Assembly: GCA_003215185.1 (NCBI GenBank)
Contig: QCKR01000001.1
Span: 21,020 to 85,019, forward strand
DNA: 64,000 bases
Direction: 5' to 3'
From: Pelagibacteraceae bacterium AG-410-D23
GTDB taxonomy: Bacteria; Pseudomonadota; Alphaproteobacteria; Pelagibacterales; Pelagibacteraceae
The notes below the pieces were generated by a model. The model worked only from the letters and a program-made list of their open reading frames with translations. It had not been told where the DNA came from and did not search any database. The translations under genes and the position numbers were made by a program. Shown in pieces: positions 44,526-51,002 of this stretch. Every line of letters begins with the position of its first letter. The first letter of the stretch is position 1.

Positions 44526-45371
44526 ATGAGTAGATTTTTAAAATCGTTCACTGTTTTTCTTGTTATTCTTTTTAGTGTTTCATCTGTAAACGCAGCAACA
44601 CTAACTGATAGATTAAAAGATGGACATAAATTAAGACTTGGGTTTGGTACAGCTGTGCCATGGGCATATGCTGGAGATAATGGTGAAGCATTAGGTTTCG
44701 TTAACATGATTGCTTTAACTGTTCTAGAAGAAATGGGTATTACAGAACACGAAACTAAAGTTTTCGAGTGGTCTGGATTAATTCCTGGAATAAATGCAGA
44801 TCGTTCAGACATGATAACTGGCGGTATGTATATTTTAAAAAGTAGATGCGCAAACATAAACTTTTCAGATCCTATAGGAGTTTTTGGTGATGCTATGTTA
44901 GTCCCAAAAGGAAATCCTAAAAATATAAATAACTACCAAGATGTTATTGATACAGGAGCTACACTGGTAACTGGCGCTGGCTTCAATACAGTTGAGGCAG
45001 CTAAAAAATTTGGTGTTCCAGACAGTCAAATGCTTTTAGTTGAAGGTGAAGTAGGAATACTCGCTGCAATGAAAGCTGGAAGAGCTGATGCTGCTGTTCA
45101 AACTTTCTTTGGTGCAAAAGAACATGAAGAAAAAACAGGTGGCGCATTTGAAGTCACTGATCCTAAGTTAATGCCTAAAGAAACTGTAAACGTAGTAGGT
45201 ATTGGTTTTAGAAAAAGTGATGACGAATTTAGAAAAGCGTTTAATGCTGCTTTAGCTAAAGTTATGGCTAATCCAGCGAAAATGTTGGAGAGAGCTGGTA
45301 AATATGGCTACGATAAAGCTCAATTACCTCCTCCTGATATGACTACTGAGTGGGCTTGCTCAACGAAGTAG
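44526..45371 (+). CDS. ehuB: EhuB-like ABC substrate-binding protein (family 3)
   Basis: Signal peptide; LIPG..ADR.DMI.GGMYI...RC; VPKGNPK; C-terminal Cys; SD GGGGAG. Confidence 0.7.
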   Translation: MSRFLKSFTVFLVILFSVSSVNAATLTDRLKDGHKLRLGFGTAVPWAYAGDNGEALGFVNMIALTVLEEMGITEHETKVFEWSGLIPGINADRSDMITGGMYILKSRCANINFSDPIGVFGDAMLVPKGNPKNINNYQDVIDTGATLVTGAGFNTVEAAKKFGVPDSQMLLVEGEVGILAAMKAGRADAAVQTFFGAKEHEEKTGGAFEVTDPKLMPKETVNVVGIGFRKSDDEFRKAFNAALAKVMANPAKMLERAGKYGYDKAQLPPPDMTTEWACSTK

Positions 45372-45391
45372 TAATAATTAATTATTTATTT

Positions 45392-45422
45392 AATCAGGCG
45401 ATCAAATAACGGTCGCCTGATT
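45392..45422 (+). terminator. Stem-loop between SBP and permease genes (partial terminator or mRNA stabiliser)
   Basis: AATCAGGCGATC-aaataac-GGTCGCCTGATT, followed by T-rich sequence. Confidence 0.7.
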
Positions 45423-45450
45423 TCATTTAATTTTAACTGATAGTTATACA

Positions 45451-46122
45451 TTGAGTTATTTTGCATTCTTAGCTGAACACGGAACAACACTGTTATTAGG
45501 CACAGTCACTACAATAAAAGTATTGGTTTGTTCAATTATTCTTTATGTAATTATTTCAATGATTTTTGGATTGATGCGCTTATCCAAAAATCCAATTATA
45601 CAAGGTACTGCAACTGTATATATAGAATTTTTTAGAGGAACATCTTTATTGGTTCAATTGTTTTGGGCCTATTATGTATTACCTTTTTTTGGTATTTCAT
45701 TAGAAGCTTTTACAGCAGGTGTAGCAGCTCTAGGTTTGAACTTTGGTGCGTATGGAGCCGAAATAGTTCGAGGGGGTATATTAGCAGTTCCCAAAGGACA
45801 ATGGGAGGCCGCACATGCGTTAAATTTTAGTCCAGCAAAAAGAATTAAAAGAATTATTATTCCACAAATATTTCCAATTATTTTGCCACCAGCTGCAAAT
45901 TTAACAGTAGAACTTTTAAAAGCAACTGCACTTGTAGCTTTAGTTACAGTTGTTGATTTAACTTTTGAAGCAAAACAAATTAATTCTATTACATGGCTTT
46001 CAGCACAATGTTTTGGAACAGCTTTGTTAATTTATTACTTCATGTCTAGATTTGCTCTTGTTCCTTTTTTAAGATGGTTAGAAGTTTTGGCTGCAAAAAA
46101 AGTTGGAAGGGGAAAGGTATAG
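45451..46122 (+). CDS. ehuC: EhuC-like ABC permease
   Basis: YIEFFRGTSLLVQLFW, GAYGAEIVRG, VPKGQWEA; TTG start. Confidence 0.8.
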   Translation: MSYFAFLAEHGTTLLLGTVTTIKVLVCSIILYVIISMIFGLMRLSKNPIIQGTATVYIEFFRGTSLLVQLFWAYYVLPFFGISLEAFTAGVAALGLNFGAYGAEIVRGGILAVPKGQWEAAHALNFSPAKRIKRIIIPQIFPIILPPAANLTVELLKATALVALVTVVDLTFEAKQINSITWLSAQCFGTALLIYYFMSRFALVPFLRWLEVLAAKKVGRGKV

Positions 46123-46126
46123 TTTT

Positions 46127-46804
46127 ATGGAAATGGGATGGAGATGGGATTTTGCTTATGAAATTTTGCCACAAATGTTATGGGCAACGTTAAATACTAT
46201 AATAGCAGCGGGCGTAGGCTATGCAATAGCTTTGGTTGTTGGATTATTTTTTCTACTTGGCCAAAGAACTCCTTCTAAAATTATTAACTTCATAAATAGA
46301 GAAATAGTAGAGTTCATTCGTTCAACACCACTTTTAATACAATTATTTTTTGTTTACTTTGTGCTGCCTCAATTTGGTATAAAATTATCAGCATGGTTAT
46401 GTGGAATGATTACGATTGGTCTTCATTTTGGTACTTATCTTTCGGAAGTTTATAGAGGTGCACTAGAAGGTGTTCCAAAAACACAATGGGAAGCATGTAG
46501 AGCATTAAATTTTTCTACTGTTTACACATATAGAAGAATCGTTTTACCGCAGGCTTTTCCTATAGCAATACCAGGAATGGGAAATTATTTAGTAGGAATT
46601 TTTAAAGATACTCCGCTTTTGTCCACAATAGGTGTTGCAGAATTGTTTCATGCAGCAACAGCAGTTGGAGGTTATAATTATAGATATTTGGAACCTTATA
46701 CAATGGTTGGTATAATATTCTTAATTCTTTCTGTGCCAGCAGCAATGTGGGTTAGAAGATTAGAAGCAAGAGTAAATGTGGCCCAAGGAAAAATTAAACA
46801 ATAA
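46127..46804 (+). CDS. ehuD: EhuD-like ABC permease
   Basis: W.WDFA N-terminus, EFIRSTPLLIQL, GNYLVGIFKDTPLLS, RYLEPYT. Confidence 0.8.
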   Translation: MEMGWRWDFAYEILPQMLWATLNTIIAAGVGYAIALVVGLFFLLGQRTPSKIINFINREIVEFIRSTPLLIQLFFVYFVLPQFGIKLSAWLCGMITIGLHFGTYLSEVYRGALEGVPKTQWEACRALNFSTVYTYRRIVLPQAFPIAIPGMGNYLVGIFKDTPLLSTIGVAELFHAATAVGGYNYRYLEPYTMVGIIFLILSVPAAMWVRRLEARVNVAQGKIKQ

Positions 46805-46816
46805 TGATTTAAGATT

Positions 46817-47608
46817 ATGGAAAATAAAAAGTCTGAAGAAATTATAGTAAAGTTTGATGAAGTAACAAAACAATACGGTGATCTTGTAGTTTTGGACAAG
46901 TTAAATTTAGATATTAAAAAAAATGAGATGGTGTCTATTATTGGACCATCAGGTTCAGGAAAAACAACAGTTCTAAGAGTTTTAATGACATTAGAAAAAA
47001 TTAACGGGGGAGTTATACATTTAGATGGTGAAACACTTACTCATATGAATTCAAATGGAAAATTAGTTGATGCTGATGAAAAATATCTAAGAGAAAGACG
47101 GTCAAAAATAGGTATGGTATTCCAGCAATTTAATTTATTTCCACATATGACTGCATTACAAAATTGTATTGAAGCTCCAGTAGAAGTGCTTGGTTTAAAA
47201 AAAGAAGAAGCAGAACAAAGGGCACTTGAATTATTAGAATTAGTAGGTTTAACTGACAAGAAAGATCAGCATCCAACTAGGTTATCTGGTGGGCAACAGC
47301 AACGTGTTGCGATTGCGAGAGCGTTGGCAATGAGACCAAAAGTAATGCTACTAGATGAAATTACATCTGCTTTAGATCCAGAGGTAGTTGGAGAAGTTCT
47401 GAACGTAATCAGATCTTTGAATAAAGAACATAACCTTACAATGATAATGGTAACTCACCAAATGGGATTTGCACGAGAAATATCAGATCGAGTATGTTTT
47501 TTTAACGAGGGAAAAATATTTGAACAAGGACCCCCAGAACAATTATTTGGAGATCCAAAAAACGAAAGAACAAAACAATTTTTGCATGCGGTACTTGATG
47601 CAAATTAA
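46817..47608 (+). CDS. ehuA: EhuA-like ABC ATPase
   Basis: [43 protein letters not shown]. Confidence 0.85.
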
Positions 47609-47611
47609 ACA

Positions 47612-47776
47612 ATGAATACAGCATTAACAATTATTGGTCTTGCAATGTTCATTTTTATTATCGTTTTTAGCTTAAAACGTGCAAGAGATAAAAAGAAAGC
47701 TCAACAAGAAGAACATCAAAAAATCAAAGAGTACGGCGAAAGCATAAACGAAGAAACAAGAAATAAAAATAAATGA
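47612..47776 (+). CDS. Small single-TM protein, 54 aa (below the ORF-track cutoff)
   Basis: MNTALTIIGLAMFIFIIVFSLKRARDKKKAQQEEHQKIKEYGESINEETRNKNK; starts 3 nt after the ehuA stop. Confidence 0.65.
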   Translation: MNTALTIIGLAMFIFIIVFSLKRARDKKKAQQEEHQKIKEYGESINEETRNKNK

Positions 47777-47868
47777 TTGAAGTATTAATTAAAATTACGC
47801 CACCATTACGACTCATCAAGTTGTATTTATGAATAATCTTTGTTAATTCTACAAAATTTTATAAGTGT

Positions 47869-47882
47869 AAGGGGCGTTCTGT
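47869..47882. repeat. Distal att core (displaced copy of the ssrA 3' end)
   Basis: AAGGGGCGTTCTGT, identical to 50700-50713. Confidence 0.85.
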
Positions 47883-47928
47883 GTCCCCCGAGAACTAAAT
47901 CATACCAAAATACCTAGGTTATTTAAAT

Positions 47929-47995
47929 ACTTCATTGAAGACTTCACTGAAAGTTTGACCTTTTTTCAAAAACCCTGTTTCTAGACTTCATTGAG
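47929..47995. repeat. Left-end arm-site-like repeats (3 copies)
   Basis: ACTTCATTGAA 47929, ACTTCACTGAA 47941, ACTTCATTGAG 47985. Confidence 0.85.
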
Positions 47996-48015
47996 AATTG
48001 GGGTTAATTTAAGAA

Positions 48016-48744
48016 GTGGTTAAAAAAGATAAATCATTAAGACTTAGCAGGTCTAGATGGGATAGTTTTATTAAATGCCCAAAATGTTTTTATCTAAAAG
48101 AAAAACACAATATAAATCCACCCAGTCAACCTGGTCACCCAATCAATTCAAGAGTCGACGCCCTTTTAAAAGTAGAATTTGACCAATTAAGAGAAAAAGG
48201 CAAACCACACCCTATTTTTAAAGAATATAATGTAAACTTTATTCCTTACAATAAACTCGATCCAGAAGTTCTAGCAAGATATAGAAATAATTTTAAAGGT
48301 GTAGAGGCAAAATCTAAAAAAACAAAATATATATTATTTGGTTCATTAGATGATTTATGGTTTAATTTAGATACTGATGAAATAGTGGTTTTAGACTACA
48401 AAGCGACGTCTAACAAAAATCTTGAGGATTACACAACATCAGACAAATATTATCACAAATCCTATTTGAGACAGTTGGACTTTTATGCTTATTTGTTAAA
48501 ACTAAACGATTATAAAGTGCATAAAAAAGGTTACTGGTTAATTTGTAACGCTGCTAATGAAAATCAAAAGAGTTTCAAAAATAATGTAAGTTTTAAAACA
48601 ACTCTTTTAGAATATGAATTAAAGACAGATTATATTGAAGATAGTTTGCAAGATTTAGAAAAATGCCTTGAAAGTAAAAAAATTCCTATATCAGGTGATG
48701 ATTGTGATAATTGTAGATGGTTTGATGAGAGAAAAAAATATTAA
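48016..48744 (+). CDS. PD-(D/E)XK RecB/Cas4-like nuclease with four Cys
   Basis: LSRS...CPKCF, GSLDD, VLDYKAT, RQLDFY (QxxxY), C-terminal CDNC; GTG start. Confidence 0.8.
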   Translation: MVKKDKSLRLSRSRWDSFIKCPKCFYLKEKHNINPPSQPGHPINSRVDALLKVEFDQLREKGKPHPIFKEYNVNFIPYNKLDPEVLARYRNNFKGVEAKSKKTKYILFGSLDDLWFNLDTDEIVVLDYKATSNKNLEDYTTSDKYYHKSYLRQLDFYAYLLKLNDYKVHKKGYWLICNAANENQKSFKNNVSFKTTLLEYELKTDYIEDSLQDLEKCLESKKIPISGDDCDNCRWFDERKKY

Positions 48745-48774
48745 TTTATAGTTGAGGACCTAAAATAACAAAAA

Positions 48775-49443
48775 ATGAATATTATATCAAAAATTGAGGA
48801 TGAGATTTTACCAAGATTAACTCAAGAAACTTGTAAATTATTAAATCTAAAAAAAAAAGAACTATCAGAATTAAGTTGGCAGACAGGTGAAAGTAATACT
48901 GATACTGACTTTTCTAATTTATCAAAAGAATGCTGTTATATTGCTTTTAAAAATATCAATAAAATAAAAGATCTTAGTTTAGAAATTAGTATTCCAGATT
49001 TAAAAATTAAATTTAAATATAAAAAAAAAATCATTGATAAAAAAATAGAATTAAAATCAACTAAATCAATTAACTCAAAAATACCTGGGTCGATGATTAA
49101 AAGTCTAGACCCAAATATTTGGACAATTATGTGTTGTCGGGCAGATAAAAAAGATAAAATCGAGGTTAGATATGGAAGATATTTTATTGGTATGGAAATT
49201 TCTGTATATGAGAAGTTTCAAGATAGATCCCCAAGACCGAGTTTAAATTTTAACAAATTTCAGAAACATGATGAAAAACCTAAAATTGCTATTACTACAA
49301 TGTCTAAGTCTTTTTGGAAAGATTATGCCAAGTCAGCAGTAAAAAGAGTTTTGGAACCCCAACAGTATTCTTGGCAAGATGATTTGGTAAAAGAAATAAT
49401 TAAAATAGTATTAAAAGATCCAAAAAAATTTAAGGATATTTAG
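48775..49443 (+). CDS. Putative type II restriction endonuclease
   Basis: IPDL...IELKS matches PD-(D/E)xK; convergent with and overlapping a C5 MTase. Confidence 0.6.
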   Translation: MNIISKIEDEILPRLTQETCKLLNLKKKELSELSWQTGESNTDTDFSNLSKECCYIAFKNINKIKDLSLEISIPDLKIKFKYKKKIIDKKIELKSTKSINSKIPGSMIKSLDPNIWTIMCCRADKKDKIEVRYGRYFIGMEISVYEKFQDRSPRPSLNFNKFQKHDEKPKIAITTMSKSFWKDYAKSAVKRVLEPQQYSWQDDLVKEIIKIVLKDPKKFKDI

Positions 49444-50593
49444 TCAAAATTTTTTCTATCTTTTTTATAATTTTATAAGAAAGAAGTGGTGGAACTGCAT
49501 CCCCAACAAGTTTATATCCTGAACTAGCAGAGATACTATTCTTACCATTTTTTATAACGAATTTCATATTGTCAGGAAATGTCTGTATTCTTGCACATTC
49601 TCTTACAGTAAGTCTTCTTTGTGTCTTGCCTTTGTCTATTTTATTTTTTCCACCATTAGTTTTTTTTAAAAATCTAAACTCAATATTACCATGGTGTTCC
49701 GATCTAATTGTTGGAGCAAATCCATTTTCTTTAATTTCAATATTTCCTTGAAGTTTAGGTAAAAACTTTGCTTTAGAATATGCAATTTGTGAAAGGTCTT
49801 TCTGTTTTTCCGTAGGTTCTTTCAAATCAATAAAAAAACTTTTAGATACTGGATATTTTAAATACTTATCGAATAAAGTGTCTTTATCCGAAAACTCTTT
49901 TTTAGGAAAGAGATCGTCATCCTTAAAGTCAATATTATTTTTTTTTAAAAAATTATTACTTACTCCAATAAAAAAAATTCTTCTTCTAGATTGAGGTATA
50001 CCAAAATCAGGAGCAAATATCTCTCGTGAGAAAACTTTATATCCCTCACCAGTATTTCTGAAATCATTTTTTATAATTTCAAAGACTTTTTTTAAATTAA
50101 TTAAACCTTTAACGTTTTCTGCAATAAAAAATTTTGGTTGTGTAATTTTTATAACCTCTTTCATCCAAAGATATAACTTTCCTCTAGTCTCTTTTTTGTT
50201 TTTTATTTTAGTTGTATTTAGGTGTGATTTATGGGAATCAAACCCTTTTCTCCACCCGCTCACACTAAAATCTTGACAGGGGAAACCACCAGTAACTAGA
50301 TCGATATTTTTTGGGAAAATATTTATACCTTTTTTATGTTTTTTTACTAAATCAACGATACTTTCATGTTTAAAAACAGTATTATTATTTTTTAAATTTT
50401 GTTCCCAAAAAATTCTAGAGGAGTCTTTAATATCATTCGCAAAAACAGTAACGAATTTAGTTTTTGGAATTTTAACCCATTTTTTTTTACTACCAACGAA
50501 ATTTCCAATAACCCTAAAATTACCATTGATTCCAATATCCATTCCTCCACAACCACTAAATAAAGATAGATGTCGAAATTTTTTTCCTTCCAT
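49430..50593 (-). CDS. DNA (cytosine-5) methyltransferase
   Basis: SLFSGCGG, GGFPCQDFS, ENV, PQSRRR, RRLTVRECARIQTFP, GDAVPP; start either 50593 (MEGKK) or 50623. Confidence 0.95.
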   Translation of the reverse strand: MEGKKFRHLSLFSGCGGMDIGINGNFRVIGNFVGSKKKWVKIPKTKFVTVFANDIKDSSRIFWEQNLKNNNTVFKHESIVDLVKKHKKGINIFPKNIDLVTGGFPCQDFSVSGWRKGFDSHKSHLNTTKIKNKKETRGKLYLWMKEVIKITQPKFFIAENVKGLINLKKVFEIIKNDFRNTGEGYKVFSREIFAPDFGIPQSRRRIFFIGVSNNFLKKNNIDFKDDDLFPKKEFSDKDTLFDKYLKYPVSKSFFIDLKEPTEKQKDLSQIAYSKAKFLPKLQGNIEIKENGFAPTIRSEHHGNIEFRFLKKTNGGKNKIDKGKTQRRLTVRECARIQTFPDNMKFVIKNGKNSISASSGYKLVGDAVPPLLSYKIIKKIEKILTKYP

Positions 50594-50623
50594 ATATGAA
50601 TTTATAACACATGTTGTTTTCAT

Positions 50624-50656
50624 ACTTCACTGAAACTTCATTGAACCTTCATTGAA
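50624..50656. repeat. Right-end arm-site-like repeats (3 tandem 11-mers)
   Basis: ACTTCACTGAA ACTTCATTGAA CCTTCATTGAA. Confidence 0.85.
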
Positions 50657-50698
50657 CTTTTTTTTTGGAAAGTAAGTAAGGACAACGGATACCTTTGG

Positions 50699-50960
50699 AA
50701 AGGGGCGTTCTGTTGCCAGGTGCCCCGAAACCCCGTTACTTAATTAATAAATTAATTAAGCAGCAAGAGCAAATTTATCATTTGCAATTATAATTTAGCC
50801 CGTCACGGTGGAACAATTCCGAACGAAAGAACAGCCTTTAGACACTCGTCGATTCTAGTTCACCCCCATAAGTTGAAATTGGTGGAGGTGGTGGGTACTG
50901 CCCCCACGTCCGCAATGTTTATTACGAAATTCGTTTATCGTCATAGTTGGAAATCCAACA
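50699..50960 (-). ncRNA. ssrA: Permuted (two-piece) tmRNA
   Basis: Acceptor piece ends CACCTCCACCA at 50880; 12-nt intervening segment; coding piece starts GGGGGTG at 50867 (G3-U70 Ala pair); tag ANDKFALAA* at 50785-50756; 3' stem GGGGCACCTGGCAACAGAACGCCCC. Outer ends approximate. Confidence 0.95.
50700..50713. repeat. Proximal att core inside the ssrA terminal stem-loop
   Basis: AAGGGGCGTTCTGT, identical to 47869-47882. Confidence 0.85.
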
Positions 50961-51002
50961 ACTTTAATATAAAACGATATTTCAAAGATTCAATAATAAT
51001 TA

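Follow-up and report, generated by a model that had tools for sequence, protein, structure and literature searches.

How does a small gene cassette that encodes no recombinase come to occupy the tail of a transfer-messenger RNA (tmRNA) gene, and what is the role of the short repeats at its two ends? The question is raised by a restriction-modification (R-M) cassette of 2,831 bp in the SAR11 bacterium Pelagibacteraceae bacterium AG-410-D23. The 64,000-nucleotide stretch analyzed here (GCA_003215185.1, contig QCKR01000001.1, positions 21,020 to 85,019), hereafter called the window, comes from a 673-kb, 65%-complete genome with a GC content of 28%. A first-pass annotation, made from the letters of the window, had compared six repeats in the cassette to the arm-type sites of lambda-family integrases and had named operators of the R-M genes as the alternative. 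An integrase matching the repeat word and its relic in the cassette were tested here, and the first of these readings was supported. Judged from sequence comparison, the six repeats are with a probability of roughly 0.85 arm-type sites of a lambda-like tyrosine integrase, which bracket an integrase-less R-M cassette in the tmRNA tail that retains a relic of the integrase gene. The same repeats at the same spacing surround unrelated cargoes as well as integrase-coding elements and are therefore most likely the docking sites of that integrase.

Repeats and cores at the cassette ends

All six copies of the 11-mer ACTTCAYTGAA lie on the plus strand, three at the left end (positions 47929, 47941 and 47985) and three at the right end (50624, 50635 and 50646). 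The copies at 47929, 47941, 50624 and 50635 are exact; the other two carry one mismatch each, a final G at 47985 and an initial C at 50646, and the 9-mer CTTCAYTGA is common to all six. They form a double site (47929–47951, two 11-mers with a 12-bp period), a single site (47985–47995) and a triple site of three abutting copies (50624–50656). A 14-bp direct repeat on the same strand (47869–47882 and 50700–50713) encloses all of them, with spacers of 46, 33 and 43 bp between repeats and cores. Orientation, positions and spacings are as first annotated. The palindrome TTCA-N-TGAA, which had been ascribed to the motif as a whole, is present in five copies and broken in one. Measured from the start of the core word GGGGCG, the double-site copies lie at 59 and 71 nt, as in the rest of their subfamily (61 and 73 nt in integrase-coding ends). 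The triple-site copies lie 77, 66 and 55 nt before the core word, the same offsets as in related elements.

The tmRNA-proximal core (50700–50713, attL) is the extreme 3′ tail of the coding piece, not the tRNA-like end, of a permuted alphaproteobacterial tmRNA gene on the minus strand (50699–50997; RF01849, 240 bits; RF04321, 133 bits; ARAGORN tmRNA*), the integration target. The distal core (47869–47882, attR) is here a composite junction of the attI type, the arm to its left being foreign. Exact copies of the 14-bp core number only two in the genome, and no further core-like site was found in the 64-kb window.

Matches to the motif with at most one mismatch numbered 10 in the window compared to 5.88 ± 2.38 in shuffled sequences. 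Throughout the 673-kb genome the 9-mer occurred 14 times, 15.2 copies being expected, and the exact 11-mer five times against an expectation of 1.8, with four of the five at the element ends. Pairs of copies no more than 60 nt apart were confined, in the whole genome, to the two element-end clusters, and a rough Markov estimate predicts about 5e-6 stretches with three copies in 70 nt. Confinement to the element ends thus applies to the clusters and not to the single motif, which is found elsewhere at background rate; therefore, only the clusters are informative. Chance was accepted as the origin of isolated copies and ruled out for the clusters as the sole close pairs in the genome. A likeness to Xer/pdif half-sites was dropped because the copies are direct repeats distant from the core.

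Conserved ends around unrelated cargo

When same-genus genomes were searched with the tandem motif pattern, 19 of 400 gave matches, and a reversed control gave none in 401. Outside the source genome, 40 of the 41 matches, representing all 19 genomes, had either of two core words beside them at a constant distance, compared to 3% of random positions. The 41st match was a doubled single site farther from its core. The tmRNA core was used in 13 genomes, a core at the groEL stop codon in nine and both in three. The groEL core word was defined after inspection of locus L034, which makes that half of the core-proximity test post hoc.

A metagenome scan for a core with a double site yielded at least 119 loci, which are not independent samples; the counts of ends and elements from here on refer to the loci listed. 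The single site, which was not part of the search pattern, was exact in 94 of the 103 left ends with enough sequence and lay 56 or 57 nt after the first double copy. Taking the window, 20 genome regions, these loci and L186 together, at least 37 core-to-core intervals start with a double site; the right-hand cluster was present in 28 and missing in 9. The lengths of the 28 complete elements span 194–8,963 bp, and blastn sorts them into 21 cargo groups. Cargoes include MORN, DUF6804 and unknown proteins and, in two elements, an N6/N4 system that is unrelated to the methyltransferase of the window; two elements of 194–195 bp are free of genes, and the integrase is full in one element, fragmentary in seven and not detectable in 20. 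Across these unrelated cargoes the layout of core, double site and single site at one end and triple site and core at the other is constant within about 2 bp. Alignments of the ends (8 and 7 ends) displayed invariant columns concentrated on the core and the repeats, among them the double site in alignment A4 and the triple site in alignment A5, while the spacers vary. It had been suggested that ssrA-linked islands with unrelated cargo should keep motif and spacing if the repeats are arm sites, and this is what the 21 cargo groups display.

Several observations concern the range of targets and end types. Gene-free, arms-only elements of 173–195 bp occur in L140 (3134–3340), L176 and L145, and in L140 the single site is fused to the first triple-site copy, as if cargo had been deleted between repeats. 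The groEL stop codon constitutes a second target of the same repeat word with a different core (L034 (G176), L039, L041, L044, L045, L047, L049, L014 and L015); in L034, three left ends, one with a variant word, are stacked beside an intact integrase gene. Cassettes were also found away from the tmRNA gene at copies of its last ~25 nt. Such look-alike sites lie beside a superoxide dismutase gene (L031, L032) and between rnhA and thrC or a peroxiredoxin gene (L036, L038, L040, L046, L048); Rfam detected no tmRNA in L031, L032, L036 and L046. At least half a dozen other repeat words were seen in the arms of neighboring elements at the same core (left flanks, loci L064–L182), which implies that many integrase specificities share one target. 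Counted by hand, 43 of 90 near-complete same-genus genomes hold at least two copies of the 12-nt core, 46 (including the unpublished G420) hold one and one holds none. The route would therefore be a common one.

An integrase gene that ends on the single site

Which enzyme would use these ends? The same layout, two plus one sites at one end and three at the other, bounds L078, a complete element of 5,282 bp that is located at the tmRNA. It encodes a 420-aa protein with a tyrosine-recombinase fold, a serine resolvase, a methyltransferase cargo, a ribbon-helix-helix (RHH)-like protein (PF07878, E 0.004) and a Rep-like protein (weak PF01446 match, E 7.7e-4). The recombinase gene ends on the single site. 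Integrase genes ending on arms were likewise found in L139, L125 and others, and in such integrase-coding ends the single site is written by Ser-Met-Lys codons near the stop of the gene. In L125, triple site, core, double site and single site follow each other beside an intact integrase gene, which is the order of a circle or a tandem junction. At the groEL site of L034, the 410-aa protein P0001 (PF00589, E 1.4e-4, below the cut-off) ends beside the arms; its relatives occur in at least 15 metagenome loci. With the motif tied to an att core across cargoes and a recombinase gene ending on the single site, the arm-type reading of the first-pass annotation was strengthened.

The window retains a trace of such a gene. 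DNA alignment with integrase-coding ends revealed that the minus strand at 47971–48003 encodes PQFSMKSRNRV where intact integrases have PQSSMKSKNKV, and that the similarity stops just beyond. This relic comprises the last ~11 codons of the integrase. Fifteen complete elements with the end subtype of the window, belonging to 12 cargo groups, have no detectable integrase, and the left ends of 12 of the other 14 are 89–97% identical to that of the window. Because these integrase-less elements share near-identical left ends and the relic codons remain, a single old deletion likely founded an end lineage that later changed its cargo many times.

Three tmRNA-type integrases tested gave no PF00589 match at E≤0.1. 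A structure model built from 42 homologues (mean pLDDT 83) had full-length lambda Int as its best match in a wide structure search (Z 16.4, root mean square deviation (rmsd) 6.0, 324 residues aligned). The alignment places model residues 12–397 on chain residues 10–356, arm-binding domain included, at a sequence identity of 12–13%. Foldseek returned 47 matches at E≤0.001 with lambda Int at ranks 1–2, and the rows shown are tyrosine recombinases. R245, K279, R351 and Y383 are invariant in the 42 sequences; judging from motif spacing, we take them to be the catalytic residues. The predicted N-terminal domain consists of three strands and a helix, superposed with lambda Int from residue 10 in the full-length match, and the N-terminal 85 residues folded alone gave a beta-sheet and a helix. 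Comparison of alignment A2 with the sequences of solved structures gave nothing significant.

Intact integrases are rare. The family has three full-length and five fragmentary matches in the 400 genomes, and of the 19 tandem-arm genomes a single one contains an intact gene. No PF00589 integrase was found in the source genome; as this genome is 65% complete, the missing match does not equal absence. Distant relatives of the integrase have other repeated words in the corresponding position beside their cores (L183/L184, 38%; L187, 33%; L188, 34%). A further observation concerns the 140-aa Rep-like protein by the triple site (L078:12449–12871, L125:2469–2894, L126:2333–2755), which contains an H-S-H-hydrophobic motif, matches Rep_1 weakly (E 7.7e-4) and might be a rolling-circle initiator.

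The available text of PMC2951348 describes heterobivalent integrases, in which arm-type and core-type binding are distinct. The short core with clustered 10–12-bp repeats on both sides is shared with lambda Int (PDB 1z1b) and, according to that text, with KplE1 IntS. The candidate also resembles lambda-type systems in its recombinase, which is predicted to have three domains and matches full-length lambda Int best in structure. In contrast, the identity is as low as 12–13%, the three integrases tested do not match PF00589, the six sites share one orientation, the final codons of the integrase gene contain one of the sites, the cassette itself is without an integrase gene, and neither IHF nor Xis sites were identified.

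Probable origin and possible mobility of the cassette

Taken together, we regard the cassette as an integrase-less derivative, similar to cis-mobilizable elements (CIMEs), that is likely mobilized by a borrowed integrase. By analogy with lambda-type systems, the N-terminal domain of the integrase would bind the repeats and the catalytic domain would exchange strands at the core. The family would have arisen by deletion of the integrase gene up to the single site, and the cassette would have inserted itself where an older element adjoined the tmRNA, a case of tandem accretion. Excision and re-insertion may take place when a rare integrase-coding relative shares the cell. If the repeats are docking sites, a borrowed integrase could thereby excise and re-insert a cassette that encodes none. 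As to passage from cell to cell, a phage particle would be the likeliest guess, but the scans of viral contigs and phage records brought no evidence for a vehicle.

The presumed entry site has a counterpart elsewhere. The 77 bp left of the core (47792–47868, plus strand) are the tmRNA-side arm of another element family, with other repeats, and resemble L073, L161 and L168. In G258 (L201), a 75%-identical arm is joined via the core directly to the tmRNA. The island of G258, which is 2.7 kb long, core-bounded and located at the tmRNA, holds a 91%-identical copy of a 54-aa ORF of the window (47612–47776, plus strand), likely cargo of the older element. Foreign arm, core and tmRNA of G258 thus present the layout into which the cassette would have inserted. 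Contigs from three runs of one study follow the left flank of the window and depart exactly at 47882, the last base of the core. A joint of 47889 to 50701 has a 21-letter side and most likely derives from another small cassette.

A number of results weigh against the proposed integrase and its service to this cassette. In the window subtype, 1 of 33 ends is followed by an integrase trace, compared to 23 of 32 in the other main subtype, and the two ends of the window share no more than 76% and 71% identity with their L078 counterparts; the exact cognate integrase of the window has therefore not been found. In the source genome, at 65% completeness, tblastn and a profile of the true family detected no relative. 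Judging from motif spacing, Tyr and Asn appear to occupy the two positions of the catalytic histidines, so integrase activity is not assured. Compared alone, the N-terminal domain matched the HPI integrase 3jtz weakly (Z 5.5, rmsd 3.6, 65 residues aligned, rank 4), in a row below or tied with unrelated proteins, and with Foldseek it matched nothing at E≤0.001. P0001, which is 35% identical to the L078 integrase and located at groEL, has the same repeat word. Conservation of the single site may be partly for coding, because it overlaps coding sequence in integrase-bearing ends. Finally, the joints listed, from contig data only, included neither a circle joint nor an exact empty-site joint.

Three other readings of the repeats have to be weighed. 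As operators controlling the R-M genes, they would account for the palindrome in five copies and for the position of the clusters, each of which lies just upstream of one of two convergent transcription units, as the ORF map confirmed; in L038 and L085, which hold the other copies of the R-M pair, the triple site also stands upstream of the methyltransferase gene. This methyltransferase is, however, carried by only two of the 28 complete elements, the window and L085, and is missing from the remaining 26, the two gene-free ones included. Furthermore, the positions of the repeats are fixed relative to the core and not to start codons, and the cassette encodes no regulator, since neither a regulator nor a recombinase is among its three ORFs, in agreement with the annotation. 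Both other R-M copies are at att cores. The motif had been thought to speak for operators if it accompanied methyltransferase homologues that lack att sites; the only other genome of the 400 with a close methyltransferase has it at an att core with a triple site. The operator reading fails because only two of the 28 elements carry the methyltransferase and two carry no gene, and operator identity was largely ruled out by these unrelated-cargo and gene-free elements; we consider it very improbable. The repeats may still have a side effect on cargo promoters. A promoter scan (15 sites against 18.3 expected) was uninformative. That a factor other than the N-terminal domain of the integrase binds the repeats, be it an excisionase (Xis) or recombination directionality factor (RDF), the RHH protein of the helper or a host DNA-bending protein, seems unlikely but somewhat less so. 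Tandem direct repeats in att arms are also typical of Xis/RDF sites, L078 does encode a small RHH-like protein, and the weak N-terminal fold match and the word shared by two integrases of 35% identity fit such a factor. Against it, the three-plus-two-plus-one layout occupies both arms at about 45–100 bp from the core, as arm-type sites do, and the three-strand-plus-helix domain superposes with that of lambda Int in the full-length match. In addition, integrase relatives sharing one core differ in the word, which would not be expected of a host factor's site.

A more serious competitor, which we hold possible though less likely than not, accepts the repeats as arm-type by origin and regards the cassette as a fixed or only cis-mobilized remnant. 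If it moves at all, it would do so along with a neighboring element that encodes an integrase, or through homologous recombination of the near-identical ends, and not as a free unit served in trans. The scarcity of intact integrases in the 400 genomes, the nine intervals that lack the right cluster and the missing circle joint agree with a remnant; moreover, the left end is broken in the G033 copy of this R-M pair, and the outer cassettes at groEL in L034 are without a triple site. In L085 the same R-M genes have a left end only 84% identical, compared to up to 97% on unrelated cargoes, which fits swapping by homologous recombination. CIMEs are likewise described as decay products mobilized in cis in the available text of PMC5704250 and PMC3146451. 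On the other side, the 15 integrase-less elements of the window subtype keep six sites and both cores at fixed spacing throughout their 12 cargo groups, which suggests continued selection on both ends. The window cassette, for which the 65%-complete genome holds no integrase-coding neighbor, is located right next to the tmRNA, which is where the latest arrival sits. Arm-type sites of a lambda-like integrase remain our preferred reading of the repeats; whether that integrase excises and inserts the cassette in trans, or whether movement occurs only in cis or by homologous recombination, stands at about even odds.

With three ORFs, no integration or transfer genes, and cores, six sites and relic kept, the cassette corresponds on sequence grounds to a CIME. 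The available text of PMC5704250 presents CIMEs as having lost integration and transfer genes, kept attL and attR and lying in tandem at a chimeric junction. Different here are the standardized ends reused by many cargoes (15 elements and 12 cargo groups in one subtype), the proximal position, the lack of an evident conjugative partner and the fully kept arm-type repeats. The ssrA islands of Dehalococcoides, as far as PMC3146451 was available, also lie in tandem at the tmRNA 3′ end within short direct repeats, and 15 of 31 are without an integration module. Their serine recombinase is CcrB-like and their tmRNA is of the standard kind, whereas the present cassettes of 0.2–9 kb are associated with a tyrosine recombinase and the coding-piece tail of a permuted tmRNA. 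VEIMEs (integrative mobile elements encapsidated in virions) and Pelagibacter phage satellites (PMC9618062, PMC11876622) as well as tycheposon-like elements (10.1101/2020.12.28.424599) are, in the text available, similarly small, with a tyrosine integrase and in some cases a serine recombinase; in about 20% of VEIMEs no integrase was identified, and these were suggested to rely on a borrowed one (PMC9618062, PMC11876622). The 5.3-kb helper L078 fits the VEIME outline. No relative was found in viral contigs or phage records, scans that could not settle whether such elements are packaged in virions, and the available text of these sources names neither a tmRNA target nor arm sites. PMC12595487, PMC11389934 and the tycheposon preprint served, in their available text, as context only. 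Neither these arm sites nor the cassettes were described in the literature searched; the VEIME supplements, which possibly list such elements, lay outside that search.

In viral collections, the tandem word was present in 13 contigs, none of them beside an exact tmRNA core, and the triple-plus-core pattern gave no match. Neither P0001 nor alignment A2 had a relative in the viral contigs, nor did the L078 integrase in 50,697 phage records. One viral contig (L062/L063) contains two inverted clusters of five 9-mer copies each, about 1.9 kb apart; they have no tmRNA core and are probably unrelated.

How small cassettes reach conserved chromosomal slots in SAR11 is left open in the available text of PMC11796062 and 10.64898/2026.10.07.757358, which report few or no canonical mobile elements in SAR11 populations; the latter mentions that Uisw_130, the record name attached to L187, has a serine resolvase next to an integrase of the phage type, possibly the same gene. 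Now that the cassette ends and their target are identified, along with a candidate integrase and, inside the cassette, its relic, the question becomes a two-component bench test. Because the tmRNA-type integrases escape the Pfam integrase model, surveys may undercount them. The repeats as such belong to a textbook class of site, which limits the surprise. The chances appear evenly balanced that SAR11 maintains a distributed cassette system, in which rare satellite-like elements with an integrase serve a larger pool of integrase-less cassettes. If so, a few per cent of cells or fewer would carry a helper whose divergent integrase escapes standard annotation, and the cassettes served would be reduced to about 230 bp of standardized ends. 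Defence and surface genes would be loaded into the tmRNA tail, its look-alikes and, by way of the other core, the groEL stop codon. Such cassettes would be to site-specific integrases what miniature inverted-repeat transposable elements are to transposases, and would provide a mechanism for some of the flexible genome of SAR11 described as unresolved in current papers.

The cargo of the window cassette consists of three genes. A PD-(D/E)XK nuclease of 242 aa (48016–48744, plus strand; PF12705, E 2.4e-9) is missing from both other copies of the R-M pair, L085 and L038, and was therefore gained or lost within the cassette. A C5 cytosine DNA methyltransferase (49430–50623, minus strand; PF00145, E 3.4e-52) of 397 aa from the first ATG is further supported by PADLOC MTase_II (E 8.5e-74) and by TIGR00675 over its cut-off; its start is likely at 50593 (387 aa), as in the L038 homologue. 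The 222-aa protein encoded at 48775–49443 on the plus strand gave no match in Pfam, PADLOC and NCBIfam. It accompanies the methyltransferase in L038 and L085 and, from this pairing, is likely a type II restriction endonuclease. Elsewhere in the window, a tRNA-Met gene (1843–1919) lies in a low-GC stretch, and directly left of the island an amino-acid-type ABC transporter operon (44526–47608) has a slightly higher GC content.

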